The notes: generated by a model not told the origin, from the letters alone. DNA of 64,000 nucleotides from an uncultured Candidatus Saccharibacteria bacterium (GCA_964448075.1 CAYUUR010000004.1:4419-68418), one strand, 5' to 3'. Counted from the stretch's first letter, positions 2,881-63,986 are shown. Program-made: numbers and translations.

Positions 2881-3147
2881 ATGGCACTTCAAAAACACGA
2901 GCAGGATTTATGGGATAGCGCTATGGTTAGCCTAGCGGCCGATTCTGATCACGTGGACAATTATCTTCGCGCAGAAGACGAAAGCGTAGATAATGAGAAC
3001 GTTGCCGAAACGCTTGTTGGACACAGGGAGGCTCTTAATCAAAAACTCGGCCACTGTTATGGCCTGAGCGATGATCAGGTTAGTGATGTACTCAAAGAAT
3101 ACCAACGACGTTACGAGTCAGTCCAAGATGACGGGGAGCAGCCTTAA
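2881..3147 (+). CDS. hypothetical acidic protein
   Basis: 88-aa ORF starting 3 nt after the VKOR stop; its TAA shares one base with the dnaJ ATG (TAATG). Asp/Glu-rich, no recognisable domain. Confidence 0.5.
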   Translation: MALQKHEQDLWDSAMVSLAADSDHVDNYLRAEDESVDNENVAETLVGHREALNQKLGHCYGLSDDQVSDVLKEYQRRYESVQDDGEQP

Positions 3148-4244
3148 TGAGTAAGAGGGATTATTATGAAACTCTAGGTGTTGGCAAGAATGCCAGCGCC
3201 GATGAGATCAAAAAAGCCTTCCGCAAGGCGGCTATCGAGCATCATCCTGACCGCGGTGGCGATGAAGCCAAGTTCAAAGAAGTCAACGAAGCCTATGAGG
3301 TACTAAAAGATTCCAGCAAGCGCCAACGCTATGATCAATTCGGTCACGCTGGCGTAGGCGGTTCAACTGGCGCCGGTGGCAATCCTTTTGAGGGGTATGG
3401 TGGCGCCGGTGGTCAGAACGTGCACTTTGACTTTGGTGACCTCGGGCTTGGTGATATATTCAGCAGTTTCTTTGGTGGTCAGCAACAGCAGCAGCATCGT
3501 TCGCGTAAGGGTCGTGATGTTGAGACCCGCGTAGAATTGACATTTGAGCAAGCCGTATTCGGCACGCAACTCGACCTTGACCTCGACCTTAATGACTCTT
3601 GTGAGCACTGTAAAGGAACTACAGTTGAACCGGGCCATGAGCTAAAAACATGTGATGAATGTAAGGGATCAGGCCAGGTCATGCATGTGACGAGGACTGT
3701 CTTCGGCAATATCCAGCAAGCCACAATCTGCCCAAAATGTGAAGGGCGAGGCAAAGTACCAGAAAAGGTTTGTTCAGTCTGTCACGGCAAGGGGGTTAAA
3801 CGTAAAAAGCAAAGCATCAAGCTAAAAGTCCCAGCCGGCGTGGATGATGGCGCGACTATCAGACTACGTGAACATGGCGAGGCGATTGCTAACGGTCCGA
3901 AGGGCGATTTGTATGTAAATCTCCGGGTAAAGCCACACAAGAAATTCACGCGAGAAGGTGATCTCATACTGAGCGAAGAACATGTCAGCATGGTAGAGGC
4001 GGCTCTAGGTACTGAAATAGATGTTGATACTGTCGATGGGCCAGTTCGCATGAAAGTGCCAGCTGGTACTCAGAGCGGCACGGACTTCAAGCTATCGAAT
4101 CACGGTGTACATCACCTTCGTAGTGAAAAGCGCGGCGCTCACATCGTAACTATCATCGTTGATATTCCAAGCAAACTAAGCAAAGAACAGAAAGAAATCC
4201 TGCAACAGTTCGCCAAGTCCCAGGGCAAAAAACACTTCTGGTAA
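3147..4244 (+). CDS. dnaJ: molecular chaperone DnaJ (Hsp40)
   Basis: 365 aa. J domain with HPD, a Gly/Phe-rich linker, four CxxCxGxG zinc-finger repeats and a C-terminal substrate-binding domain. Confidence 0.97.
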   Translation: MSKRDYYETLGVGKNASADEIKKAFRKAAIEHHPDRGGDEAKFKEVNEAYEVLKDSSKRQRYDQFGHAGVGGSTGAGGNPFEGYGGAGGQNVHFDFGDLGLGDIFSSFFGGQQQQQHRSRKGRDVETRVELTFEQAVFGTQLDLDLDLNDSCEHCKGTTVEPGHELKTCDECKGSGQVMHVTRTVFGNIQQATICPKCEGRGKVPEKVCSVCHGKGVKRKKQSIKLKVPAGVDDGATIRLREHGEAIANGPKGDLYVNLRVKPHKKFTREGDLILSEEHVSMVEAALGTEIDVDTVDGPVRMKVPAGTQSGTDFKLSNHGVHHLRSEKRGAHIVTIIVDIPSKLSKEQKEILQQFAKSQGKKHFW

Positions 4245-4350: not shown

Positions 4351-6450
4351 ATGAACGTAAGAATACGAAACGTGAGCGGATTTTTTGCCAAACTGTCGTT
4401 GTTAGGGCTATTCGCTATTCCTGTCGTTATGATGACTTTATCAGCTAATGCTGAAACGATAATTACAGACTACGAATATGCCAATATAATGGGCGGTACT
4501 GGGGCCGAAGTTACTAACGCTGTCGCAACTGACAGCAATAATAATGTATATGTAGCGGGTTATTTTAATGGTACTGTCGACTTTGACCCCGGCGCTGGCA
4601 CAGACAACAAAACATCGGCTGGGGGCAGGGATATCTTCGTAACTAAAATCAACGCTGACGGCAGTTACGGCTATACCAAAACCATGGGTGGCGTTGGCAC
4701 TGATGGGGCTAACGCCGTCGCTACCGACCAAGATGGCAATATATACATTGCTAGCCCCTTTAATGGCACCGCCGACTTTGACCCCGGCGCCGGCACTGAC
4801 AATAAAACTTCCGCCGGAAGCACAGATATCGCACTGACCAAAATCAACGCCGACGGCACCTATGGCTATACCAAAACAATCGGTGATACCGGTGCTGATA
4901 CTCCTTATACCCTCGCCACCGACCAAGGCGACAATATATACGTTGCAGGCGCCTTCACTGCCACAGTCGACTTTGATCCTGGCGCCGGCACCGACAACAA
5001 AACATCGGCAGGTGGCACAGATGCATTCCTGACCAAAATAAATGCCGACAGCAGTTACGGCTATACCAAGATTATTGGTGGTGCTAGTGCTGATAGTGCT
5101 TATGCTATTGCTACCGACCAAGACAATAACGTATACATAGCTGCCAGATTCTATGCCACCGCCGACTTCGACCCCGGCGCCGGCACCGACAACAAAACCT
5201 CCGCTGGGAATATGGACGCCTCACTAACCAAAATCAACGCTGACGGTACTTACGGCTATACTAAAACCATAGGCGGCACTGCCTATGATCAAGTGAATTC
5301 TCTCGCAACTGACCAAAACAATAATGTATACATTGCGGGTAATTTCCAAGGTACCGCTGACTTCGACCCTGGCGCTGGTACGGATAATAAAACAGCTACA
5401 GGCGGGTCTGATGATGGTTTTGTGACGCGAATAAACGCTGACGGCTCCTACGGCTATAGTAAGTTTTTCGGCAGTACTAATAACGATAATGTTTATGCCG
5501 TCACCACCGACCAGGATGGTTATATATACTTAGCAGGGGAGTATATAGGCACTTTAGACTTCGACCCGGGCGCTGGCACCGACATTAGAACATCAGTAGG
5601 GTGGTCTGATGCATTTCTCACAAAAATGAATGCCGACGGTACTTATGTCTACGCAAAAACCATGGAAGGACAAAGTGGAGCTGATGAAAGTTATGGTAGT
5701 TCTGTTGCTTCTGACTCGAGTAATAGTATCTATTTAGCAGGCTATTTTTGGGGCACCCTAGACTTTAACCCTGATGTAGCCACAGACAGCAAAACCTCCG
5801 CCGGCAGCAGTGATGTTTTCCTCACCAAACTCACCCAAACCACCTACCAACAAATCACTGGCCTTGCACCATCCCTCGCAGCTAAGACTCTCTCTAACAC
5901 AGACGCCACAGACAACACCATTGAAAACGGTACTAGTGCTACCATACGCCTGTCGCTGAGTGACACCACTCCCATCGCCGACGTCACCACCACCTTCACC
6001 ACTGACCTCAACTGGTCCACCGTGACCGCCGACTCTAACCTCACCACCGGCACTGCCTTTGCCCACAACCTCACAGCTGCAGACGGTACTGCTGGCACCT
6101 TCACTCTCTATGTCCCCAAACTCCCGAACCACACGAGAGTAGGCATCTGTCCTGGAGCGAGCTCCCTAGCAGCAACAACAGAACAATGCGAAGGACTGTA
6201 CTACCTCACAGAAGGAGTAGACAACAACCTCACCACCACAACCATAGATGCCCAAGACTACTGGACCATTACCGGCCTCACCGGCACCGGAGGCTTCAGT
6301 GCAGAGGCTGCAGCAACCACTACAGACGCAGACACCGATACAGACGCTTTGGCGGAGACGGGGGAGAGCCAGACAAATATCTTGTATATTTCGTTGATTA
6401 TTCTAGGGATTTCTATAATTCGTTTGCGAAGTCGATACAGCAAAGCTTAG
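4351..6450 (+). CDS. sortase-anchored surface protein, seven-bladed SBBP-type beta-propeller, LAETG sorting signal
   Basis: 699 aa from ATG 4351 (listed ORF starts at 4282). Signal peptide ends ...TLSANA. Seven ~65-aa repeats follow (DFDPGAGTDNKTSAG..D.F.TKINADG.YGYTK...ATDQ..N.YIAG), then a Thr/Ala-rich stalk. LAETG (6349-6363) is followed by a hydrophobic helix and an RLRSRYSKA tail. Confidence 0.85.
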   Translation: MNVRIRNVSGFFAKLSLLGLFAIPVVMMTLSANAETIITDYEYANIMGGTGAEVTNAVATDSNNNVYVAGYFNGTVDFDPGAGTDNKTSAGGRDIFVTKINADGSYGYTKTMGGVGTDGANAVATDQDGNIYIASPFNGTADFDPGAGTDNKTSAGSTDIALTKINADGTYGYTKTIGDTGADTPYTLATDQGDNIYVAGAFTATVDFDPGAGTDNKTSAGGTDAFLTKINADSSYGYTKIIGGASADSAYAIATDQDNNVYIAARFYATADFDPGAGTDNKTSAGNMDASLTKINADGTYGYTKTIGGTAYDQVNSLATDQNNNVYIAGNFQGTADFDPGAGTDNKTATGGSDDGFVTRINADGSYGYSKFFGSTNNDNVYAVTTDQDGYIYLAGEYIGTLDFDPGAGTDIRTSVGWSDAFLTKMNADGTYVYAKTMEGQSGADESYGSSVASDSSNSIYLAGYFWGTLDFNPDVATDSKTSAGSSDVFLTKLTQTTYQQITGLAPSLAAKTLSNTDATDNTIENGTSATIRLSLSDTTPIADVTTTFTTDLNWSTVTADSNLTTGTAFAHNLTAADGTAGTFTLYVPKLPNHTRVGICPGASSLAATTEQCEGLYYLTEGVDNNLTTTTIDAQDYWTITGLTGTGGFSAEAAATTTDADTDTDALAETGESQTNILYISLIILGISIIRLRSRYSKA
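4474..5835 (+). repeat. seven tandem coding repeats, period about 195 bp (propeller blades)
   Basis: The GACTT[TC]GACCC core recurs at 4579, 4774, 4969, 5164, 5359, 5557 and 5761 (spacing 195, 195, 195, 195, 198, 204 bp), all in frame within the 4351..6450 CDS. Confidence 0.85.
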
Positions 6451-13201: not shown

Positions 13202-13332
13202 TAGGCATATGTACGCCGACTCTTCTGATTGACTTTTTAGCAAAAATAAGCATAATGTAAGAAGTTATTTTCCTAAGTTTGGTGCAAAAAGGAAAAGAGC
13301 AGCCCGAGCAAAACAAAGGTTTTCTCACCTAG

Positions 13333-13409
13333 GGGTCCATAGCTCAGCTGGTTAGAGCACCTGCCTTTTAAGCAGGGTGTCGTGGGTTCGAGTCCCACTG
13401 GACCCTCCA
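13333..13409 (+). tRNA. tRNA-Lys (anticodon TTT), CCA encoded
   Basis: Hand-folded cloverleaf: acceptor GGGTCCA/TGGACCC, D arm GCTC..GAGC, anticodon stem CCTGC/GCAGG with loop CTTTTAA (TTT at 13367-13369), T arm GTGGG-TTCGAGT-CCCAC, discriminator T, CCA. Confidence 0.95.
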
Positions 13410-13447
13410 ATAAAAACGCCTCATCGAAGATGGGGTATTTTTATTGG
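13407..13447 (+). terminator. hairpin whose outer stem starts with the tRNA CCA (CCAATAAAAA...TTTTTATTGG)
   Basis: Outer 10-bp A/T stem plus inner CCTCATC-GAA-GATGGGG stem containing a U-G pair (forms only in the plus-strand RNA). T-rich 3' arm. Confidence 0.6.
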
Positions 13448-13546
13448 TTGATCTCGTAGAGATTGAACGCACGAAGTGGGTGCGTTCATAAGGAGTGCGC
13501 GCAGGAATTTATTCCGAGCACATGACGCAATGGTTCGCAGAACATA
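13411..13546 (+). other. 136-nt module between direct repeats of the tRNA-Lys 3' end
   Basis: Bounded by exact 17-nt repeats (13394-13410 and 13547-13563). Contains hairpins at 13465-13487 and 13504-13515. Collinear blocks are shared with the 137-nt module at tRNA-His. Confidence 0.5.
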
Positions 13547-13563
13547 CCCACTGGACCCTCCAA
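13547..13563 (+). repeat. exact 17-nt copy of the tRNA-Lys 3' end (CCCACTGGACCCTCCAA)
   Basis: Identical to 13394-13410 (3' T-stem, acceptor 3' strand, discriminator, CCA, plus A). Confidence 0.9.
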
Positions 13564-13600
13564 ACAAAATGACTCACCATAGGTGGGTCTTTTTGTTTGG
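13560..13600 (+). terminator. second CCA-anchored hairpin (CCAAACAAAA...TTTTGTTTGG)
   Basis: Same design as 13407-13447. Inner stem GACTCACC-ATA-GGTGGGTC has one U-G pair, followed by a T-rich arm. Confidence 0.55.
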
Positions 13601-13685
13601 TAGTGTTCACCGTGTGAGTTCATCAGCAAAGCCTCGCAGAATAAAACTTATGGTAAACTGAGCGTAATACATAACAAGGATTAAT

Positions 13686-45598: not shown

Positions 45599-45675
45599 CG
45601 GGGTGTGGCGCAGTTGGCTAGCGCGCGCGGTTTGGGACCGCGAGGTCGAAGGTTCGAGTCCTTTCACCCCGACCA
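45599..45675 (+). tRNA. tRNA-Pro (anticodon TGG), CCA encoded
   Basis: Acceptor CGGGGTG/CACCCCG, D arm GCGC..GCGC, anticodon stem CGCGG/CCGCG with loop TTTGGGA (TGG at 45633-45635), T arm GAAGG-TTCGAGT-CCTTT, discriminator A, CCA. TATAAT at 45549-45554 upstream. Confidence 0.95.
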
Positions 45676-45712
45676 ATCAAAGAGTCCACAGCAATGTGGG
45701 CTTTTTGATTGG
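45673..45712 (+). terminator. CCA-anchored hairpin (CCAATCAAAG...CTTTTTGATTGG)
   Basis: The outer stem uses the tRNA CCA. Inner stem GTCCACA-GCAA-TGTGGGC has one U-G pair. T-rich 3' arm. Confidence 0.6.
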
Positions 45713-45842
45713 TTCTTTGCATTGTAGAAAAGTGATAGTTGATTTTTGAACAGTCTGTGAACTTTACAGGCAGTAATGTTTACGTTTACTGAAAAAAGTT
45801 ATACAATCTTGTTCAACATAAAGCTGACAGGAGGGTTAAAGT

Positions 45843-48246: not shown

Positions 48247-49725
48247 ATGAGTGGCGAAGCCTTACAACAATCAGAAATACTCGATAATTTTGAGTTTATC
48301 TCGCTCTTATCTGATTGGCAGCAGGAGGTCGCTCGCTATGACAGCAATGACAGCGATTTGTACCAAAGTCTTGTCGACCGTTACGGAGATATGGGCGGGG
48401 TTGATCGAGCCGAGGAAACGGTTTCTTATCTACACGGGCTTTCTTTAGACGCCTACATTGCTGAGCATCGTGATAATGACGGAGTAATTGACAGGCAGTT
48501 TGAACTCCGAGCAATGGCAGAGTCAGAGCGTGAAGCAGCCAAAGCGCAAGTTATTGCTCATGCTGAGCGTCAGGGTGCCGATGTATTTACACTGTATGGT
48601 TTGCAACATTCACTAAGACAGCAGAAGAATACCGATCTATCAGAAGTCGTCAATGAAGTGCGCCAGGCGCGCGATAATTTGCGGGCAGTGGATGAGTTTG
48701 TCCGTGAGCATGGGGGAGAAGTGGTAACGGTGTATGACCAGCTTCAAACAGTGCAAGCCGGCCAACTAACTGGTGAAGGCATAACGATTGTTGACCGTAA
48801 CGTGGTCTTGCCAATTAATCCAGTAACCGCACGGCTGGTTGGGCCAAGTTATCATCCTCAGGAGCTCCAGGTCACAGACGAGGAAGTCCAAGAAGTTGAC
48901 CAAATTACCGTAAATGCAGCTGCTCTCGTCCGCCGTGGTGCAGTTATTGTGTCCCCTGAGGCAGTCCTGGATGCAGAAAAGTGGCTTTCCACCGGCAATA
49001 TAGTAGGTAATGTAGTGTTGACTGCTGGTGAAGTGCCGGCTGGTCCACTGAAAATCCCACATGACAAGGAATCGTATCTTGACCATTACACGCGACGGCT
49101 TAATGCCTTCAGACACGTTGGTAGGTTGGCAGCAGAGAGTATTCGACCTCCGCGTTTGAGCAACGTCGAAGTAATTAATCAGTTGGCTGAACTGGTCGGT
49201 GAGATTCCTTATAACGAAGGTTTGGCTGAATACGGGATCAGATTTACCGCCAAGCCTTTGCAAGATATCGGCGGACGCGCCTGGCGTCTCGAGATAGATA
49301 CTGGTAGCCAGAGGTCTAGCAGGCTGATTGTAGAGCGAGACGATGTGCACTCGCCTGGTTGTGGATCACGCGGTGAGCGGACTGCCAGCACGACGCGCTT
49401 GATTGCCGACTTACGCAGTGGTACGGTGCAAACGCTCACCCAGTCGACACATATTGGGCGAGACGTAATGTTCCCACGGCCATCAGTTGATAGTCCGTAC
49501 GAGTTGCTGAGTCGTTTTGCAAAAAGTAGTACGTTTCTGCTTTTTCGTACTCCTGAAGAAATGTTAGACCTGCTTGAGTACCAGCTCGTATCAGAGCCGG
49601 AAGATTCTTCTGGTTTTGGCAATCGGCGCTCTAAAGTCGTTGCACTTGAAGACGTTGCACTCGAAGACAAGGTGGATAATTTATCGCTTGGTGTAGCTCG
49701 GCTGATGCTTCGTCATCACGACTAA
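48247..49725 (+). CDS. hypothetical cytoplasmic protein (orphan)
   Basis: 492-aa uninterrupted ORF, acidic, with no TM segment, signal peptide or motif I recognise. Confidence 0.55.
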   Translation: MSGEALQQSEILDNFEFISLLSDWQQEVARYDSNDSDLYQSLVDRYGDMGGVDRAEETVSYLHGLSLDAYIAEHRDNDGVIDRQFELRAMAESEREAAKAQVIAHAERQGADVFTLYGLQHSLRQQKNTDLSEVVNEVRQARDNLRAVDEFVREHGGEVVTVYDQLQTVQAGQLTGEGITIVDRNVVLPINPVTARLVGPSYHPQELQVTDEEVQEVDQITVNAAALVRRGAVIVSPEAVLDAEKWLSTGNIVGNVVLTAGEVPAGPLKIPHDKESYLDHYTRRLNAFRHVGRLAAESIRPPRLSNVEVINQLAELVGEIPYNEGLAEYGIRFTAKPLQDIGGRAWRLEIDTGSQRSSRLIVERDDVHSPGCGSRGERTASTTRLIADLRSGTVQTLTQSTHIGRDVMFPRPSVDSPYELLSRFAKSSTFLLFRTPEEMLDLLEYQLVSEPEDSSGFGNRRSKVVALEDVALEDKVDNLSLGVARLMLRHHD

Positions 49726-52324: not shown

Positions 52325-52350
52325 CTAACATTCCATATGCGATCCGTATT

Positions 52351-52359
52351 TGCTATACT
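52351..52359 (+). promoter_or_regulatory. extended -10 element TGcTATACT
   Basis: TGCTATACT at 52351-52359 lies 13 nt before ATG 52373. This argues against the listed 52337 start. Confidence 0.35.
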
Positions 52360-52372
52360 TAGCATAAGCTAT

Positions 52373-54283
52373 ATGAAAGGCATATCATTGAGAAACAGGA
52401 CAGGCACTTTTTTAGCACTTTCGGTGTTTGTTATTGTAGGTGCGGCATCAATCTTTTTGTATTCCCCTATGGTGTCAGCCGCAACCTTTGAAGTTGATTC
52501 AACGCTTGATACTACAGACAACGATGCAGGTAACGGTATCTGTGATGACGGGTCGGGTAACTGCACTCTACGTGCTGCTATAGAAGAGGCTAATGGTAAC
52601 GGCGGTTCAGACGTTATTAATTTTGCAATATCTGGAGCAGGTGTTCACACCATTGTACTGGAAGAGGCGTTGCCCGTGATATCGGAAACCTTAGTAATTG
52701 ACGGCACTAGCCAATCCGGAGCCAGTTGCGGCGATCTGGTTCCCAGCCTGCCAAGCTCATCCAATATACCCCATAACTTACTGATTGAGGTTACGTACCA
52801 AGATGATGACGCAAGTTCATACGGAACAGCGTTTCTTATTGACTCGTCTGGTTTGGGTGAAGCTAGTAATACGACCATACAAGGATTGGTGATTAACCAT
52901 AATACTACCTGGAACGGCGAGTTTGTGGCCATTAATGTGGGTAGGGATACGGAGGGTGTTTTCTATGATGAGAATGTGTCAATTAATTGTAACTACATCG
53001 GTACAAATGCCACGGGTACGGCTATCTTAGACTCTACTATAGGCGTCAGTTATGGTTCAATTATCGAAGGACTTACAGTAACCAATAATCTTATCTCTAC
53101 TACAGGAGTCGGCGTGAGAGGGGAGAGCCTGCATCAAGCAACAACCTTGAGTAGTAACTTAATTGGCACGGATGCAAGTGGGGAGCAGCCTTTGGGGCAA
53201 GAAGATGGCATTATCGGGAACCTTACAGATACAACTATTCAAGGAAACGTAATATCAGGTAATACAAACGACGGCGTTAGATTTAATTATGGTTCACAAA
53301 GTATAATCGGTAACTATATTGGACTATCCGTGTCCGGTGAGCCACTTGGCAACTTAGGCAATGGTGTGCGGGCAGATTCCGAGAGTATAGATTATCGAAT
53401 CGGTGGAGACATGGCAGGCGAACGGAATATAATATCCGCGAACGGCAACAACGGTGTAAGGATCTATAATCATCTGGAGACAGGCGATAGCTGTTCCGCA
53501 ACGATTAACCAGCGGGGAGCTGTTCAGGGTAATTACATTGGTACGGATGCTGACGGATTGATCGCCGAAGGCTATGGGAATAATCAGAATGGAGTCCAAG
53601 TAAATGAAACTACTACCGCAGCTCCTTGTGGGGTTGCTAATAGTATATATCGTATTCAAATCGGTGGAGATGCCAGTGAGGGCAATGTAATTGCCGGTAA
53701 TGGCAACGATGGTGTGCAGATTTTTCAGGCACCCGGAGCTGACGTGTTTGGTATTTCAGTAATAGGTAACAGTATATTTGGCAACGAGAACCTAGGTATC
53801 AATCTCGCCCAAGACTCTGCTAATGATGACGTAGCGGATGTCGATACGGGCCCAAATGAAAATCGTTCTTTTGCCCTTACCTACCCATCCGAGCAAGCCA
53901 ATAACTACATTAACTATCCAGTTATCAATAGTTCGCGTAGTAATGAAGCAGAGTTAGTTATAAATTACGATTTCACCGCGGGTTTGATTGAAGAAAGCGA
54001 AGACGGTTTATCGCTACGTGCCGAAGACTTGGTGGGGTATCGTTTGGATTTCTACCTAAACGATCAACTTGGTAATCTAGGATACGGTGAAGGTAAACGT
54101 CATATCGGTAGCTTCATCGTTGATGGCAGTGAAGATGATGCAGAACATGTTTTTTCTGGGATCTCTAACATTGACGATAACCTAACTGTTTCTGCAACTG
54201 CAACCGTGCTATGGAGGAACAATAATTGCAACCAGAATTCAAGAAGTGGAAATGGGCCACCATATGTTTCGAATTGTGAGTAA
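52373..54283 (+). CDS. secreted CSLREA/beta-helix protein, paralog of 49775..52324, lacking its own anchor
   Basis: 636 aa from ATG 52373. Signal peptide ..SPMVSA/ATF, GNCTLRAAIEEAN, collinear with the upstream paralog to ..VSATATVL. It then ends with an unrelated 23-aa tail and no LAxTG. Confidence 0.8.
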   Translation: MKGISLRNRTGTFLALSVFVIVGAASIFLYSPMVSAATFEVDSTLDTTDNDAGNGICDDGSGNCTLRAAIEEANGNGGSDVINFAISGAGVHTIVLEEALPVISETLVIDGTSQSGASCGDLVPSLPSSSNIPHNLLIEVTYQDDDASSYGTAFLIDSSGLGEASNTTIQGLVINHNTTWNGEFVAINVGRDTEGVFYDENVSINCNYIGTNATGTAILDSTIGVSYGSIIEGLTVTNNLISTTGVGVRGESLHQATTLSSNLIGTDASGEQPLGQEDGIIGNLTDTTIQGNVISGNTNDGVRFNYGSQSIIGNYIGLSVSGEPLGNLGNGVRADSESIDYRIGGDMAGERNIISANGNNGVRIYNHLETGDSCSATINQRGAVQGNYIGTDADGLIAEGYGNNQNGVQVNETTTAAPCGVANSIYRIQIGGDASEGNVIAGNGNDGVQIFQAPGADVFGISVIGNSIFGNENLGINLAQDSANDDVADVDTGPNENRSFALTYPSEQANNYINYPVINSSRSNEAELVINYDFTAGLIEESEDGLSLRAEDLVGYRLDFYLNDQLGNLGYGEGKRHIGSFIVDGSEDDAEHVFSGISNIDDNLTVSATATVLWRNNNCNQNSRSGNGPPYVSNCE

Positions 54284-55866: not shown

Positions 55867-55941
55867 GCGGGTGTTGTATAGTGGCTAATATGCTAGCCTT
55901 CCAAGCTGGAGACGAGAGTTCGATTCTCTCCACCCGCACCA
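55867..55941 (+). tRNA. tRNA-Gly (anticodon TCC), CCA encoded
   Basis: Acceptor GCGGGTG/CACCCGC, anticodon stem CTAGC/GCTGG with loop CTTCCAA (TCC at 55900-55902), T arm GAGAG-TTCGATT-CTCTC, discriminator A, CCA. Confidence 0.93.
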
Positions 55942-55984
55942 ATCCTTTGTTCTCCTTGCGCGAGAGTAAAGGATTGGTTTTTTA
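55939..55984. terminator. CCA-anchored hairpin shared with the convergent gene (CCAATCCTTT...AAAGGATTGG + T tract)
   Basis: A 10-bp outer stem, an inner short stem, then TTTTTT. The stop of the minus-strand gene (55982-55984) lies in the T tract, so the hairpin may act in both directions. Confidence 0.55.
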
Positions 55985-57413: not shown

Positions 57414-57490
57414 GCCCCGGTAGCTCAGCTGGATAGAGCAAGTGGGTTCTAACCATTAGGTCGGGGGTTCGAATCCCTCCCGGGGTACCA
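57414..57490 (+). tRNA. tRNA-Arg (anticodon TCT), CCA encoded
   Basis: Acceptor GCCCCGG/CCGGGGT (G1-U72), D arm GCTC..GAGC, anticodon stem AGTGG/CCATT with loop GTTCTAA (TCT at 57448-57450), T arm GGGGG-TTCGAAT-CCCTC, discriminator A, CCA. Confidence 0.93.
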
Positions 57491-57528
57491 AGCAAAACGT
57501 CCATGCCCTGCATGGGCTTTTTGTTTGG
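57488..57528 (+). terminator. CCA-anchored hairpin (CCAAGCAAAA...TTTTTGTTTGG)
   Basis: Inner stem GTCCATGC-CCT-GCATGGGC has one U-G pair. T-rich 3' arm. Confidence 0.6.
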
Positions 57529-57720
57529 TCCTACCATGATTCAAACACTCGACGCCAAGGGTCGGGGTGAAAACTGCCCGGTGGCAGTTTGCAAGAGAAT
57601 CTTCACCTGACAACTTGTTGTCATGGCAGAAGTTCTGGGCCTGCTGAAAGTAGGTCGAATCCCTGTCCGCCCTGTCTGGCAGACAGGCGGGCCTCCCTGG
57701 GTAGCATGTCGCTAATGCCT
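57529..57720 (+). ncRNA. candidate structured RNA containing a scrambled copy of the tRNA-Arg T-arm/acceptor 3' part
   Basis: No ORF on either strand is credible. Hairpins: AAACTGCC-CGGT-GGCAGTTT (57571-57590), TGACAA-CTTG-TTGTCA (57609-57624), and an 11-bp bulged stem (57665-57691). TAGGTCG+AATCCCT (57651-57664) and CCTCCCTGGGTAGCA (57692-57706) copy tRNA-Arg. Bounded by terminators on both sides. Confidence 0.3.
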
Positions 57721-57752
57721 AAAAAGACTTCAATAAGAAGTCTTTTTATTTT
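57721..57752 (+). terminator. rho-independent terminator
   Basis: AAAAAGACTTC-AATAA-GAAGTCTTTTT followed by ATTTT, 15 nt before the next ATG. Confidence 0.65.
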
Positions 57753-57766
57753 GCTATAGTTATGCC

Positions 57767-59373: not shown

Positions 59374-62300
59374 ATGACGGATGCAGTTAAGGTTAATAAG
59401 AGACGGCTATGGCAGGTCCTATTCACCGTTTTCTCTATAGCTTTGCTTGCCGTGATACTCAGGCCAATTATGACCGAGGCTGCAGCATATACCTGGGATG
59501 GCGGTGGCGCCGACAATAACTGGAGTACCTGTGCTAACTGGACTACAGATTTTTGTCCTGGTGCCAGCGATACGGCAACCTTTAATGGCACATCAACGAA
59601 AGATGTTACTATCGATGGCGGATTTGGTGGAACAGTAACCTCGATAACTATTGCGTCTGGTTACACGGGGACTATAACAATGGCGCGCTCACTAACCGTA
59701 AGTACGTCATTCTCTCAGGCCACCGGCACATTTACGGCAGCAAACCAATCGTTCGATATGAATGGCACTTTCACACTTTCTGGTGGGATCTTCACAGCAT
59801 CGAGCGGTAGCACAACTCTGGCTGGAGCGATGACCGTTTCCGGCAGTCCTACTTTTAATGCAAATAGCGGTACCTGGACGTTTGATGGCACAACGACAGC
59901 AACCTTATCTTGCAATAACATAACGTTTAACCTGGTCACGTTCAATCACGATACAAACGCCGGTAAAACAGTTAGTTCGAACTGTACTTTGCCGCTTGGC
60001 AATAACCCTTCAACCGGAGCATCAACTACTCAGGATTTGACGATCAATGGGACGTTGACAGGGACTGGCACATTAACAATAGGTGCGAAAAACAGCGCCA
60101 ACCTTTTGACTCTCAACAGCGGCGGTTCTCTATCTGGGTTTACCGGGCTGGATGCGGGGTCGGTAACCATAGCGGGTACTTATGATTTCAGTACTTACAC
60201 TACGCTCTTTGCAGTAAGTTCGCCGTATAGTCAAACTTCCGGAACGGTTACACTGCCAAATGGTGCGGACTTCAATAATACGTTCACGGTTAGTAGTGGC
60301 GCTACGCTCAACGCCTCATCGGGCATCACGAACTTTGCAGGTAATTTCACTTTGGACGCGGGGTCGATATTTAATCACAATAATGGCACCCTTGACTTTG
60401 ACGGGGCGAATGCGGGGCTCTTGACGTGCAATGGAGCGAGTATCTATAACGCCACCTTTACGCATACGTCCAACTTCACCAAAACCATCGGCACCACTTG
60501 TACGGTTCCCCTAGGCAACAACCCTACCATAGGCAGTGACGGTACGGCCGATGTTACGGTGAACGGTACGTTGTCTGGTACTGGTACTCTTTCTCATGGG
60601 ACAAAAGCATCTGGTAATCTACTGACTCTTAGCTCCACTGGAGCTTTATCAGGCTTTAGTGGTCTTGGGCCTGGCTCGCTAACTGTCACTGGAGGAACTT
60701 ATGACTTTGGGGCTTACAGCGCTTTAGTGTTCCCCGGGGCTTACAGTCAAACAGCCGGCACGGTTACGATACCTAGCGGCTCTGATTTTAATAGTACATT
60801 CAGTGTGAGTAGCGGAGCTACATTTAACGCTCCGTCTGGTACGGCAACTTTTGCCAGTACGTTTACACTAGCAGCCGGCTCTATTTTTAACGCAAACTCT
60901 GGAACAATTACTTTTGATGGCGCGGTCACGGCTACTATTACCTGCAATAGCGCCGTCTTTAACCTAGTGACTTTTGCTCACAGCAGTAACTTTACCAAGA
61001 CTGTCAGTTCCGGTTGCACATTGCCTTTGGGCAATAATCCAACAGTAGGAAGTGGAAGTTTCCCAGATATTATTGTAGGAGGTACTCTGTCAGGAACTGG
61101 GACATTGACCATTGGCGGAAAGGCAGCACAGAATACACTTATCATAAATAGTGGTGGTTCACTATCAGGTTTTAGCGCACTAGATGCCGGAACTGTTAGT
61201 TTGGCAGCAGGAACCCATAACTTCGGCAGTCTTACTACTTTCGCGACTAGGGCTGATTTCTCGCTCGTGAGCGGAGTTATTTTTACGGCACCAAGTGGAA
61301 CCTTGTCATTGTATGAAGACTTTACTGTAAATGCTGGCGCAACATTCAACGCGAACGGAGGCACAGTTGTTTTCACGGATCCCGGCTATAACTCAGCAAT
61401 AATTAACTGTAACAACGTCACTTTTAATTTGGTGGTATTTGACAACTCACAACCGAGAACTTTCAACAATTGCGCTATGCAAATAGCAGACTCGACAGTT
61501 GACGTAAGTTCTACGCAGATTGTCTTAGGTACGAACTCTTCTATTACTGGGGGTGGCAATACGTATCTTCACGGTATGAGATTAACCATAAACCAAGGCT
61601 CTTCAATTTCGGGCTTTTCTGAGTTACTGATTGCTGAAATAGAACTTAAAGATAATGCTAGTTTGGATATTTCCGCTATGGACTATGTATACATAACAAA
61701 TAACTTAACCATGAGGACTGGTAGTAGTCTAACTCAAGGGACCGCTGAGTTAGAGATCGGTAGCATCGGGATGTCAGACGGTGGCGCATCGCTCATTGGC
61801 GGCAGTGGCCCGATGCTATTTCACAACGATGTAGACATTGTAGGCTCCGCAGATGTATTAACGCTTACGTCTGGCATGGCAAAATTTGAAGGTAATTTGG
61901 AGCTTGGAGGTGCCACTTCGATCGATGCTAACGGTGGTGTGGTTGAGTTTACGGATGACGGCTTTGGTGGTGCGTACACGGTTGCTTGTAACGGCGCAGT
62001 ATTTAATGAAGTGACATTCACAAGGGATATTGGGACGCTGACCATTGCAGACACATGCGAATTTCTACTCGGTAATAATCCGTCTATTACGGTTGGGCCT
62101 GATTTTCGATTATATGGCCAGCTAACTGGCACTGGCACACTGACGGTTATCGGATCGCTTAGCCCAAGAGGTAGCAGTGTCGATCTCTCTGGGTTTACTG
62201 GTCTACAGACTGATGATTTGTTCATAGGGGTTGCTGGAACGGCTACCAGCCTGAACTTAGGAGCGTTTAACACGGTTGATGTAGATGGTGATTTTTCGGT

Positions 62301-63057
62301 GGCAGCTGATGGTGTGTTCACGGCGACATCAGCAAACATGACCGTTGCCGGAGATTTTAGCGTCGATGACGCCGGCACATTCAATCATAATAACGGAACT
62401 GTTATTCTTGATGGTAGTGATCAGACAATCAACGGCACTACTTTTTATAACCTGAACAAGACTGTCGCAACCGCCGCAACACTCACAATGTCAGCCGGTA
62501 GGACTGTGACAATCCAAGGAACGCTCACGCTTAAAGATGCTTCTGGCCAATTACTCAGTATCGTTTCTTCTGATCCCGGGGTTACTCAGTGGGGGATAAA
62601 TGCAAGTGGTGACACGGAGATTAGGTATGTATCTGTAACTGACAGCAATAATGTCGGATCAGCGATTACGGCATTAGACAGTGAAAATGGCGGCAACAAC
62701 ATCAATTGGTTGTTCGTAGATACGTCTATTGATAGCGATCCCGAAGAAGAGGCTACGCAAACTGATGATAGTACCATCAAAGCAATTACCGATGATGAGG
62801 TAGTCACATATTATGAAGAGAGTACAGATAGTACCAATGACGACGATAAGAGTGATAATGAGACAGACGACTATCGTGACGATGGTTTGTCTGATTTCGG
62901 CGCAGCAACGACTGATCAGATCAAGTCACCAGTTACTACAAGTGAAAACAAACTGCCCGCAATAGTTGTGCGCATCGCGCTTGGCGGACTAGTAGCGCTC
63001 ATCGTTTTTGTTCTAGTGAGGTTGTTTGTTCGTCCAGGTGCCCCGCCATTGGAATAG
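59374..63057 (+). CDS. giant repetitive surface protein with C-terminal membrane anchor
   Basis: 1227 aa. N-terminal signal/anchor (WQVLFTVFSIALLAVIL), YTWDGGGADNNWST start, six modules of ~150-190 aa (each FN[AH]N.GT..F[DT]..., C.N..F..V.F, NCTLPLGNNP, G.L.GTGTL), an Asp/Glu/Thr-rich linker, and a terminal TM helix. No LAxTG. Confidence 0.85.
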   Translation: MTDAVKVNKRRLWQVLFTVFSIALLAVILRPIMTEAAAYTWDGGGADNNWSTCANWTTDFCPGASDTATFNGTSTKDVTIDGGFGGTVTSITIASGYTGTITMARSLTVSTSFSQATGTFTAANQSFDMNGTFTLSGGIFTASSGSTTLAGAMTVSGSPTFNANSGTWTFDGTTTATLSCNNITFNLVTFNHDTNAGKTVSSNCTLPLGNNPSTGASTTQDLTINGTLTGTGTLTIGAKNSANLLTLNSGGSLSGFTGLDAGSVTIAGTYDFSTYTTLFAVSSPYSQTSGTVTLPNGADFNNTFTVSSGATLNASSGITNFAGNFTLDAGSIFNHNNGTLDFDGANAGLLTCNGASIYNATFTHTSNFTKTIGTTCTVPLGNNPTIGSDGTADVTVNGTLSGTGTLSHGTKASGNLLTLSSTGALSGFSGLGPGSLTVTGGTYDFGAYSALVFPGAYSQTAGTVTIPSGSDFNSTFSVSSGATFNAPSGTATFASTFTLAAGSIFNANSGTITFDGAVTATITCNSAVFNLVTFAHSSNFTKTVSSGCTLPLGNNPTVGSGSFPDIIVGGTLSGTGTLTIGGKAAQNTLIINSGGSLSGFSALDAGTVSLAAGTHNFGSLTTFATRADFSLVSGVIFTAPSGTLSLYEDFTVNAGATFNANGGTVVFTDPGYNSAIINCNNVTFNLVVFDNSQPRTFNNCAMQIADSTVDVSSTQIVLGTNSSITGGGNTYLHGMRLTINQGSSISGFSELLIAEIELKDNASLDISAMDYVYITNNLTMRTGSSLTQGTAELEIGSIGMSDGGASLIGGSGPMLFHNDVDIVGSADVLTLTSGMAKFEGNLELGGATSIDANGGVVEFTDDGFGGAYTVACNGAVFNEVTFTRDIGTLTIADTCEFLLGNNPSITVGPDFRLYGQLTGTGTLTVIGSLSPRGSSVDLSGFTGLQTDDLFIGVAGTATSLNLGAFNTVDVDGDFSVAADGVFTATSANMTVAGDFSVDDAGTFNHNNGTVILDGSDQTINGTTFYNLNKTVATAATLTMSAGRTVTIQGTLTLKDASGQLLSIVSSDPGVTQWGINASGDTEIRYVSVTDSNNVGSAITALDSENGGNNINWLFVDTSIDSDPEEEATQTDDSTIKAITDDEVVTYYEESTDSTNDDDKSDNETDDYRDDGLSDFGAATTDQIKSPVTTSENKLPAIVVRIALGGLVALIVFVLVRLFVRPGAPPLE

Positions 63058-63713: not shown

Positions 63714-63791
63714 GGCGGGCTTAGCTCAGTTGGTTAGAGCGTCGGGTTGTGGTTCCGAAGGTCGTGGGTTCGATCCCCATAGCTCGCCCCA
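63714..63791 (+). tRNA. tRNA-His (anticodon GTG) with encoded G-1 and CCA
   Basis: G-1 at 63714 opposite discriminator C. Acceptor GCGGGCT/AGCTCGC, anticodon stem TCGGG/TCCGA with loop TTGTGGT (GTG at 63749-63751), T arm GTGGG-TTCGATC-CCCAT, CCA. Confidence 0.93.
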
Positions 63792-63829
63792 TGAAAAGAC
63801 CAGTCCTTCCGGGCTGGTTTTTTCATGGG
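63788..63829 (+). terminator. CCA-anchored hairpin (CCCATGAAAA...TTTTCATGGG)
   Basis: A 10-bp outer stem, plus inner ACCAGTCC-TTCC-GGGCTGGT with one U-G pair, followed by a T tract. Confidence 0.6.
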
Positions 63830-63928
63830 CATGTTTATGTGAGCGAACCTGAGAACGCGAAGCGTGGGTTCGACAAACAAAGGCACGCGCAGAAGCTCGC
63901 TTCGAGCATGTCTGCAGTTTGTATCCAT
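63792..63928 (+). other. 137-nt module between direct repeats of the tRNA-His 3' end
   Basis: Bounded by exact 19-nt repeats (63773-63791 and 63929-63947). Contains a further 11-nt T-arm copy CGTGGGTTCGA (63863-63873) and a GAAG-CTCG-CTTC hairpin (63892-63903). Collinear with the tRNA-Lys module. Confidence 0.5.
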
Positions 63929-63947
63929 ATCCCCATAGCTCGCCCCA
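63929..63947 (+). repeat. exact 19-nt copy of the tRNA-His 3' end (ATCCCCATAGCTCGCCCCA)
   Basis: Identical to 63773-63791 (from T-loop A58 through CCA). Confidence 0.9.
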
Positions 63948-63986
63948 AATAAAAATGATCCCAGTTGGGGTCATTTTTATTTGGGG
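63943..63986 (+). terminator. second CCA-anchored hairpin (CCCCAAATAAAAA...TTTTTATTTGGGG)
   Basis: Same design as 63788-63829. Inner stem TGATCCCA-GT-TGGGGTCA has one U-G pair. Confidence 0.55.

Follow-up and report, generated by a model that had tools for sequence, protein, structure and literature searches.

What puts an exact second copy of a tRNA's 3′ end just behind the tRNA gene itself, and what is the sequence held between the two copies? The question is raised by the tRNA-Lys(UUU) gene at 13333-13409 (plus strand, called by ARAGORN; Rfam tRNA score 73.9 bits) in a 64,000-nucleotide stretch of an uncultured Candidatus Saccharibacteria bacterium (GCA_964448075.1 CAYUUR010000004.1:4419-68418), hereafter the window. 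The last 16 nt of the gene (13394-13409) and one extra base form a 17-nt sequence, CCCACTGGACCCTCCAA, which occupies 13394-13410 and recurs exactly at 13547-13563, as an initial annotation of the window had stated. The 136 nt between the two copies are here called the module. The same annotation had pointed to a collinear counterpart behind tRNA-His(GUG), which we confirmed and which has a repeat of 19 nt. Our reading, to which we give a probability of roughly 0.5, is that the module is a non-autonomous mobile element that copies the tRNA 3′ end on insertion, probably from RNA, and then spreads by homologous recombination.

The Lys and His modules share a common core, GGTNCG-N13-CGCGCAG-N10-CGAGCA, with fixed spacing. 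A pattern scan with this core, run on one genome per species, matched at least 120 stretches. About 50 of the matches listed are low-GC Saccharibacteria/Patescibacteria contigs, and the others are chance matches in high-GC genomes; the family counts used below (37 tRNA-linked copies and 49 aligned sequences) are drawn from the matches listed. In the 37 tRNA-linked copies a tRNA gene ends 57-102 nt upstream on the same strand, and these host tRNAs represent 14 amino-acid specificities (Gln, Glu, Ser, Met, Asp, Tyr, Lys, Leu, Pro, Trp, Asn, Arg, Gly, and His) and 21 anticodons. Most copies without a called tRNA are cut by contig ends, and a few come after the apparent end of a larger integrated element. 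The initial annotation had also proposed a covariance model. Built on 49 family members, the model scores the Lys module at 60.2 bits and the His module at 65 bits (E about 1e-11 to 1e-12), values that are partly by construction because both window modules were included in it; the next match in the window reaches 11 bits. Among 20 tRNAs fetched for other reasons, only that of locus L128 carries a module, which implies that copies are few per genome and that the window, with two modules at five tRNAs, is high.

By their sequence, then, the two window modules are members of a gene-less family of ~90-110 nt, specific to Saccharibacteria and placed just downstream of tRNA genes. The family is previously undescribed, and its conserved structure has no Rfam counterpart. 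Indeed, when the window and both loci were searched against Rfam 15 at gathering and permissive thresholds, only tRNAs reached a gathering score; the other matches fell far under theirs and were mostly chance matches of hairpin type, mainly to microRNA (miRNA) precursor models. No description of the element was found in the literature, viral contigs scanned with the core pattern held no copy (four chance matches in coding DNA), and BLAST of the module against phage and plasmid collections gave no match.

Hardly any weight can be given to the idea that the repeat arose by chance, or that the tRNA end was simply duplicated locally together with its terminator. The shortness of the repeat and the common design of the terminators before (T1) and behind (T2) the module speak for it; the ~50 homologous copies listed at many tRNAs of many genomes, the strong covariation described below, the E-values of the window modules, and a likeness among terminators that is genome-wide speak against it. 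More in detail, all five window tRNAs have a CCA-anchored terminator (CCAA...TTGG; 13407-13447, 45673-45713, 55939-55977, 57488-57529, and 63788-63829). Judging from the sequence of these mutually similar hairpins, the mature tRNA 3′ end is sequestered in the terminator helix of the primary transcript, a design that is genome-wide. Terminators of unrelated tRNAs agree at 29-34 of 45 positions, and T1 and T2 of tRNA-Lys at 30 of 45. Thus, the initial annotation was right that the second hairpin (13560-13600) has the same design, being CCA-anchored too, but the likeness is no evidence of a terminator duplication in the window. Homology of T1 and T2 as a sign of such a duplication was rejected for the window and holds only for L100, L114, and probably L031.

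Behind the terminator, family members are built in a constant order: an optional mini-hairpin, hairpin 1, an irregular hairpin that we call the rod, sometimes a third triloop hairpin, A(T)-N-T, and the tRNA 3′ segment. In hairpin 1, (T/C)GAACC pairs with GGTTCG, often around an inner C-GNA-G triloop hairpin, and 33 of the 49 modules, against 6.9 expected, have a GAAC in the 50 nt upstream of GGTNCG. The rod runs from ACGCGCAG through a variable hairpin to CGAGCA; at a finer level, a variable stem is arranged around C-GC-G-C-A, a variable hairpin of 4-5 bp, and G-A-GC-A. Over the 49 sequences, the rod is 91.5% paired (22-40% in slid controls), and its double-change cells number 108 against 37 ± 7 in shuffles, none of 500 shuffles reaching the observed value. 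The double changes fall at 8 of 12 pairs and are compensatory, keeping the helices. The two neat hairpins singled out in the initial annotation, one of 8 bp with a 7-nt loop at 13465-13487 and GGAA-TTTA-TTCC at 13504-13515, do exist as described; what is conserved and covaries, however, is a single irregular rod together with the CGAACC/GGTTCG hairpin. In 15 sequences, tandem G.A/A.G stands in place of two Watson-Crick pairs, and only on the plus strand. As these pairs would be C.T/T.C on the opposite strand, the fold belongs to the tRNA-sense strand.

The flanks of the rod are themselves tRNA sequence. GGT(T/G/A)CG precedes it in all copies (by design of the pattern) and tRNA positions 58-76 follow it, the 3′ hairpin being optional. 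Just before TTCG lie six bases that agree with positions 46-51 of the cognate tRNA well beyond their agreement with non-cognate tRNAs (113 of 222 matches, against 72.6 ± 6.6, p < 1e-4). In many modules, the 5′ arm of hairpin 1 reads as the reverse complement of an intact T-arm, positions 58-60 included. A sense copy of positions ~46-57 together with an inverted T-arm copy gives the anatomy inverted ~46-60, loop, 46-57, rod, 58-76; on this alignment, a partial tRNA copy is interrupted by the rod between positions 57 and 58. No consensus motif of group I or bulge-helix-bulge (BHB) introns, of the hammerhead, or of other small-ribozyme cores was seen by eye, and none was matched in Rfam. As non-coding, structured sequences of about 100 nt that are multi-copy and polymorphic among relatives, the modules resemble miniature inverted-repeat transposable elements (MITEs), repetitive extragenic palindromic (REP) sequences, and other interspersed repeats. 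Unlike these, they are strictly associated with tRNA 3′ ends, and a search for the marks of MITEs found no terminal inverted repeats and no fixed short target duplication, internal hairpins only.

In the loci that have one, the second copy of the last 16 nt of the tRNA lies 128-167 nt past the tRNA end. Among the 37 tRNA-linked copies, it is perfect in 17, has one to three mismatches in nine, and is visibly decayed or truncated in 11; on inspection, the imperfect repeats presented no A-specific mismatches like those of diversity-generating retroelements (DGRs). No distant second repeat, as in a large island, was found within 1-7 kb of these copies. Since the second copy or its decayed remnant is always right behind the module and never kilobases off, the module is not the deletion remnant of a larger island. 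The attL/attR geometry noted by the initial annotation therefore stands as far as the direct repeat of the tRNA 3′ end and the lack of an integrase nearby are concerned, but not as the trace of such an island.

The repeated segment is a defined stretch of the tRNA, 12-60 nt long. Its start lies in the T-loop (position 58 in 12 copies, position 59 in seven), and it extends to the CCA; six of the seven have a T in the module where position 58 would fall. The Lys repeat, starting at position 61, is slightly short. Where the distal flank is unrelated, the right end of the copy can be read: it is A76 in L087, L068, and L080 and C74 in L015, L038, and L090. L100 and L114 carry exact duplications of 60 and 52 nt, from the T-loop through the terminator end, which on sequence grounds indicates recent events; the two youngest copies end at the terminator end. 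These three right ends would correspond to the 3′ ends of the mature tRNA, of a tRNA minus its terminal CA, and of the primary transcript. At the junction of the L114 module, 5 nt (AGTCT) belong to a foreign T-loop/T-stem and suggest a switch at a microhomology. In L087, there is no duplication of the terminator and spacer, which separate the tRNA end from the insertion point.

We then considered how the modules vary between genomes and tRNAs. At tRNA-His, the window has T1, the module, the repeat, and T2. In L128, where the neighbouring protein is 92% identical, the tRNA runs into a terminator that is new, and behind it come a degenerate module of another kind, a repeat without mismatches, and the T1 found in the window; in L131, L129, and L130 (71% identity), no 3′ module is present. 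Modules from different genomes, behind tRNA-Arg in L087 and tRNA-Met in L113, were counted as 93% identical from CGAACC to the junction, with unrelated terminators and spacers and with host-specific repeats. At tRNA-Glu(CTC), at least four rod subtypes occur in different genomes. In the tandem arrays of L031, L086, and L082, the unit beside the tRNA is intact and the distal one decayed. These alignments show that the unit turns over between related genomes, occupies many tRNAs, and forms tandem arrays with decayed distal copies. The initial annotation had favoured a small repeated family over a one-off scar, and had named as refuting outcomes a lack of further copies and of polymorphic sites and a Lys/His similarity no better than in shuffled controls. 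None of the three came true: we found a family of ~50 copies among the matches listed, variation at tRNA-His, and covariation.

Some further arrangements were recorded in the same set of loci. In L039, 100%-identical modules follow tRNA-Leu(GAG) and tRNA-Leu(CAG) (3124-3179 and 5196-5251), each with its own acceptor-specific repeat, and the identical block is bounded exactly by T-arm sequences common to both tRNAs; this suggests gene conversion or a very recent copy. On L136 (minus strand), near-identical modules at 77-102 and 4151-4176, both with a tRNA-Gln 3′ copy, lie 4 kb apart, with an alginate lyase gene and a beta-helix protein gene between them, and no intact tRNA is called on the contig. 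Upstream of some Gln-type modules, a conserved "arm" of ~80 nt stands in place of the tRNA (L054 ~150-200, L011 ~560-640, and L136 190-270 on the minus strand). Its sequence, GTTTCGTGTCCCxTTTGTCTCACTTTTTGT...CCCTGTAAAG...CAGCCA, is probably the end of a larger element integrated in a tRNA 3′ end.

Repeats that begin in the T-loop and extend to the 3′ end are a classic mark of integrases targeting tRNAs, and integration into tRNA genes reportedly has distinct sublocations, the T-loop or the 3′ end. The modules could therefore be miniature integrative elements, similar to cis-mobilizable elements (CIMEs) or to integrative mobile elements exploiting Xer (IMEXs), that depend for movement on a tyrosine or Xer-type recombinase whose gene lies elsewhere. 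The repeats would be attL and attR with the crossover in the T-loop, and the rod and hairpin 1 putative recombinase sites, possibly as folded single-stranded DNA by analogy with integron attC or CTX-phage attP. The tandem arrays, which place the newest unit beside an intact tRNA, and the incoming unit of L128, which brought its own terminator and displaced the old one distally, agree with this explanation. So do the larger, integrase-type-looking elements with conserved arm repeats that abut tRNA ends in L054, L011, and L136, and also the imperfect hairpins themselves, with fixed mismatches, a bulged A, and AAC...GTT in hairpin 1. The likeness to integron attC and CTX-phage attP(+) extends to strand specificity, to the conservation of structure and few bases, and to the way in which hairpin 1 recreates the target duplex (the T-arm) as a stem; in contrast with integron attC, there is no cassette and no attC consensus beyond AAC/GTT.

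Other features fit integration poorly. An integrative element would have to bring a matching 19-nt sequence for every one of more than 20 isoacceptors, yet L087 and L113 share only the unit of rod and hairpin. The rod, lying between positions 57 and 58 of the distal copy and hence inside the would-be attR core, would disrupt the core site. Unlike known tyrosine-integrase elements and CIMEs, the unit is always about 130-165 nt, without kilobase cargo, and one unit is found at many tRNAs with the matching 19 nt. No integrase was found in the window or seen in the few neighbouring regions examined, and the viral contigs, phages, and plasmids searched hold no copy. On this evidence, we consider the integrative explanation unlikely.

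The second alternative is a functional small RNA, in which proteins would bind a scaffold made of the rod and hairpin 1, and the 3′ tail equals the 3′ end of the host tRNA. It could act as a decoy or competitor for enzymes or toxins that work on tRNA 3′ ends. It could also be a guide pairing with the antisense strand of tRNA-derived DNA, either the attP of tRNA-integrating elements or the tRNA gene, by analogy with the layout of TnpB omega RNA or of the homing CRISPR RNA (crRNA) of CRISPR-associated transposons (CASTs). The covariation, the conservation of internal-loop bases over distant genomes, and the strand-specific G.A pairs favour an RNA. The layout does so as well, with a scaffold of ~100 nt, a target-identical 3′ segment of 17-19 nt, and a terminator, and about half of the second copies are perfect. 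Moreover, the order GGTTCG, rod, 58-76 would be that of target-adjacent motif (TAM), element, and guide in IS605-type elements. The likeness to the palindrome-associated transposable elements (PATEs) of the IS200/IS605 family and to omega RNA includes small size, strand-specific imperfect hairpins, and perhaps GGTTCG immediately 5′ and a 3′ flank that is what would follow GGTTCG in the uninterrupted site. The differences are that the module has no free genomic site as its target but lies within a partial copy of a tRNA, with the intact gene next to it, and that no TnpA or TnpB was seen: tnpA/tnpB had no Pfam match in the window, and Rfam, IS605-orfB/omega RNA families included, gave none at E<=10 (Lys) or E<=5 (His).

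The small-RNA explanation is weakened by the position of the modules. At both window loci a strong terminator lies directly before the module, and no sigma-70-like promoter was found between T1 and the module. In about a third of the copies, the tRNA-end copy is decayed or truncated while the rod is intact, and distal tandem copies decay. Few tRNAs per genome have a module, which ones varies among relatives, and no partner gene is found nearby. The possibility, which the initial annotation had raised beside that of a miniature element, thus has in our estimate a poor chance.

Coming back to the non-autonomous mobile element, we consider it rather probable that the module is a mobile element at all; an RNA-templated origin of its repeat, taken by itself, we hold to be tentative and somewhat doubtful. 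The mechanism that we propose would have three steps. First, the element would insert de novo beside the terminator of a tRNA, and the tRNA-end copy would arise by copy-choice, with the tRNA or its primary transcript as template. Synthesis would start at the RNA 3′ end (CCA, C74, or the terminator end) and would switch onto the element at the T-loop, by a block at 1-methyladenosine 58 (m1A58) or by microhomology of the conserved A-N-N-C-C. Second, the rod would be the cis site of a putative trans-acting protein, such as a reverse transcriptase, a nickase, or a recombinase. Third, the unit would now be flanked by tRNA sequence, with the gene as left arm and the 58-76 copy as right arm, and after DNA uptake could home by RecA recombination into the orthologous tRNA gene of a naive genome, leaving the tRNA unbroken.

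Several observations point in this direction. Mobility is indicated by the differences among relatives at tRNA-His, the near-identical modules of L087 and L113, the rod subtypes at tRNA-Glu(CTC), the decayed distal units of the tandem arrays, the exact duplications in L100 and L114, and the lack of a module at 19 of the 20 tRNAs fetched for other reasons. Only the unit of hairpin 1 and rod is common to L087 and L113, from which we infer that the 58-76 copy must be made afresh for each tRNA. Right ends that coincide with RNA 3′ ends, a left end at position 58, the unduplicated terminator and spacer of L087, and the 5 foreign nt of L114 favour copy-choice with a switch in the T-loop. Spread by RecA would account for L128 and for the many loci in which the repeat is perfect and the terminator unrelated. 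There are precedents for parts of the scheme. At the retroviral primer-binding site (PBS), m1A58 stops reverse transcriptases at position 58, and the reverse transcriptases of the Neurospora retroplasmids Mauriceville and Varkud switch onto tRNA 3′ ends, the resulting hybrids integrating at tRNA genes by homologous recombination. The modules share with both a tRNA 3′-end copy of 18-19 nt bounded at position 58; they differ from them in the bacterial host, in an extra inverted T-arm copy, in a copy that is tRNA-sense on the structured strand, and in that no reverse transcriptase was identified.

Different points weigh against the proposed mechanism. No integrase, reverse transcriptase, transposase, or HUH protein was found by Pfam in the 64-kb window (45 open reading frames [ORFs], chiefly of at least about 140 aa), and no mobility gene of these kinds is linked to any copy. 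No empty/filled pair of otherwise identical alleles was obtained. To our knowledge, m1A58 is not known for these organisms. A simple template switch would not naturally yield the inverted T-arm copy and the tRNA-specific copy of positions 46-57. Perfect repeats with dissimilar terminators need import from other strains, or gene conversion or selection on the repeat, and a right arm of 19 nt would be short for RecA. Furthermore, the search pattern demanded the internal-loop bases of the rod, so their invariance is partly an effect of ascertainment; copies found in other ways deviate, as L128 (CTCACGCAG...CGAGTA) and the second module of L031, which has a different rod. Finally, 95 complete Patescibacteria genomes contained no group II introns (PMC13011429), although these bacteria do possess DGR reverse transcriptases of a clade specific to them (PMC8144416).

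At the Lys locus, all features lie on the plus strand. T1 (13407-13447) has a stem that starts from the tRNA CCA (CCAATAAAAACGCC...TTTTTATTGG), with an inner stem at 13418-13436 and a T-run in the terminator scan, which scores both T1 and T2 as intrinsic terminators, G+C-rich hairpins followed by a T-run. The optional mini-hairpin GATCTC-GTA-GAGAT follows at 13450-13464, and similar triloop hairpins are found in many family members. In hairpin 1 (GAACGCAC / GTGCGTTC, 13465-13487), the 5′ arm approximates the reverse complement of the tRNA T-arm, and the 3′ arm contains the T-stem copy GTGGG and the T-loop-like GGTGCG. The rod, which is the conserved core, occupies 13493-13525, with the stem GAGTG/CATGA around CGCGCAG, the hairpin GGAATTTATTCC (13504-13515), and CGAGCA. 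A linker (13526-13546), with a 13-nt inverted repeat of 85% complementarity, leads to the second repeat copy, which equals tRNA-Lys positions 61-76 and one base; in the predicted minimum-free-energy fold, GAACATA and CCCAC of the linker could pair with AGTGGGTGCGTTC (13475-13487) and form a T-arm-like stem closing the rod. Behind T2, the stretch 13601-13650 is probably, on a weak alignment of GTGTGAGTTCATCA...GCAAAGCCTCGCAGAA with both module flanks and a direct repeat, the decayed remnant of an older rod-less module. If so, the Lys locus would itself probably be a tandem array.

The Lys locus is identical throughout in an independent assembly of the same organism (Logan SRR16481186), which indicates that it is not an assembly artefact. 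Its module has no plausible gene; the ORF list holds only spurious frames of 47-61 aa that overlap the tRNA and the terminators. An empty tRNA-Lys site was sought in the closest relatives (L001-L004), in which synteny is lost and Peptidase_S51 is in place of the tRNA. The tRNA-Lys of a further relative (L005) is followed by the same core in a module of another subtype, with a decayed repeat.

On the 5′ side of tRNAs, two other arrangements were observed. A 23-nt motif, GGAAAAGAGCAGCC(C/G)GAGCAAAA, lies at 13291-13313 in the ~70-nt 5′ leader of tRNA-Lys and again at 1054-1076 of L128, a close relative, within an insertion of ~125 nt in the 5′ leader of tRNA-His; it may be a second small repeat family. 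Upstream of the intact tRNA-His of L131 (2064-2166; also in L129 and L130), a 5′ copy of positions 1-19 (GCGGGCTTAACTCAGTTGG) is followed by ~45 nt and an inverted D-arm copy (CTCTAACCAACTGAGTT), an arrangement whose sequence looks like a D-loop counterpart of the T-loop module.

The second host gene of the window, tRNA-His(GUG), lies at 63715-63791 (ARAGORN and Rfam; plus strand, like the features that follow), and its last 19 nt are the first repeat copy (63773-63791). T1 (63788-63829) has a 19-bp stem that includes CCCA...TGGG. Hairpin 1, CGAACC...GGTTCG with the inner mini-hairpin ACGC-GAA-GCGT, is at 63844-63872 and contains GTGGGTTCGA, a copy of the 5′ half of the tRNA-His T-arm. The rod (63881-63913; covariance model and fold) has AGGCA/TGTCT around CGCGCAG, the hairpin AAGCTCGCTT, and CGAGCA. 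The second repeat copy, ATCCCCATAGCTCGCCCCA, equals tRNA-His positions 58-76 and lies at 63929-63947. T2 (63944-63986) was recognised in the sequence and is not listed by the terminator scan; the sole support beside this are chance matches to miRNA precursor models at 63943-63986. A pseudo-acceptor stem (GUGAGC/GCUCGC) in the His fold was dismissed as a coincidence, as nothing comparable was seen by eye in Lys, L100, L095, or L114.

The window is core genome, with DnaK/J, RecA, RecX, RuvABC, type IV pilus genes, and RNase Y; ComEC and enolase were assigned by Pfam on the orthologous genes of the relative L001. Going by these gene assignments, RecA, RecX, RuvABC, the type IV pilus, and ComEC would provide the capacity for recombination-based spread. 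Three large ORFs have no Pfam match at E<=0.001 (59374-63057, 1227 aa; 52337-54283, 648 aa; 48247-49725, 492 aa). Behind tRNA-Arg, an intergenic stretch of ~230 nt (57530-57760) holds several G+C-rich hairpins, the T-arm-like GGTCGAATCCC, and its own terminator. It matches no Rfam family at E<=1 except weakly ctRNA_p42d (22.4 bits against a gathering score of 50, E 0.015), on the terminator hairpin at 57721-57754, and may be an undescribed small RNA.

Our best current reading, then, is the miniature tRNA-targeting element of the initial annotation: the module is tRNA-targeting mobile DNA with an undescribed conserved structure. A more specific view is distinctly speculative, and we regard it as improbable: the module as a self-propagating "homology-arm" parasite re-targeted via RNA, or as a scaffold whose tRNA-identical tail serves as a guide RNA. 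In the former case, a rod-recognising enzyme would copy the 3′ end of any tRNA or pre-tRNA at hand, up to the T-loop, onto the element, and the resulting tRNA-bracketed unit could harmlessly enter the same tRNA gene of any competent relative; in the latter, scaffold and tail would guide a putative effector directed at tRNA genes or attP in bacteria of the Candidate Phyla Radiation (CPR).

For the study of these genomes, the modules probably break assemblies at tRNA genes, and the tRNA-end copies could pass for the att sites of islands. The tiny, streamlined genomes of Saccharibacteria tolerate a recurrent, structured, gene-less insertion at essential tRNA genes, and the family is a clean natural case of target-specific insertion without an adjacent mobility gene. 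It raises the question of how an element of ~100 nt comes by an exact match to the 3′ ends of more than 20 different tRNAs. Behind this could stand a novel activity of CPR bacteria, be it in reverse transcription, template switching, or recombination, or else a new guide-RNA system.

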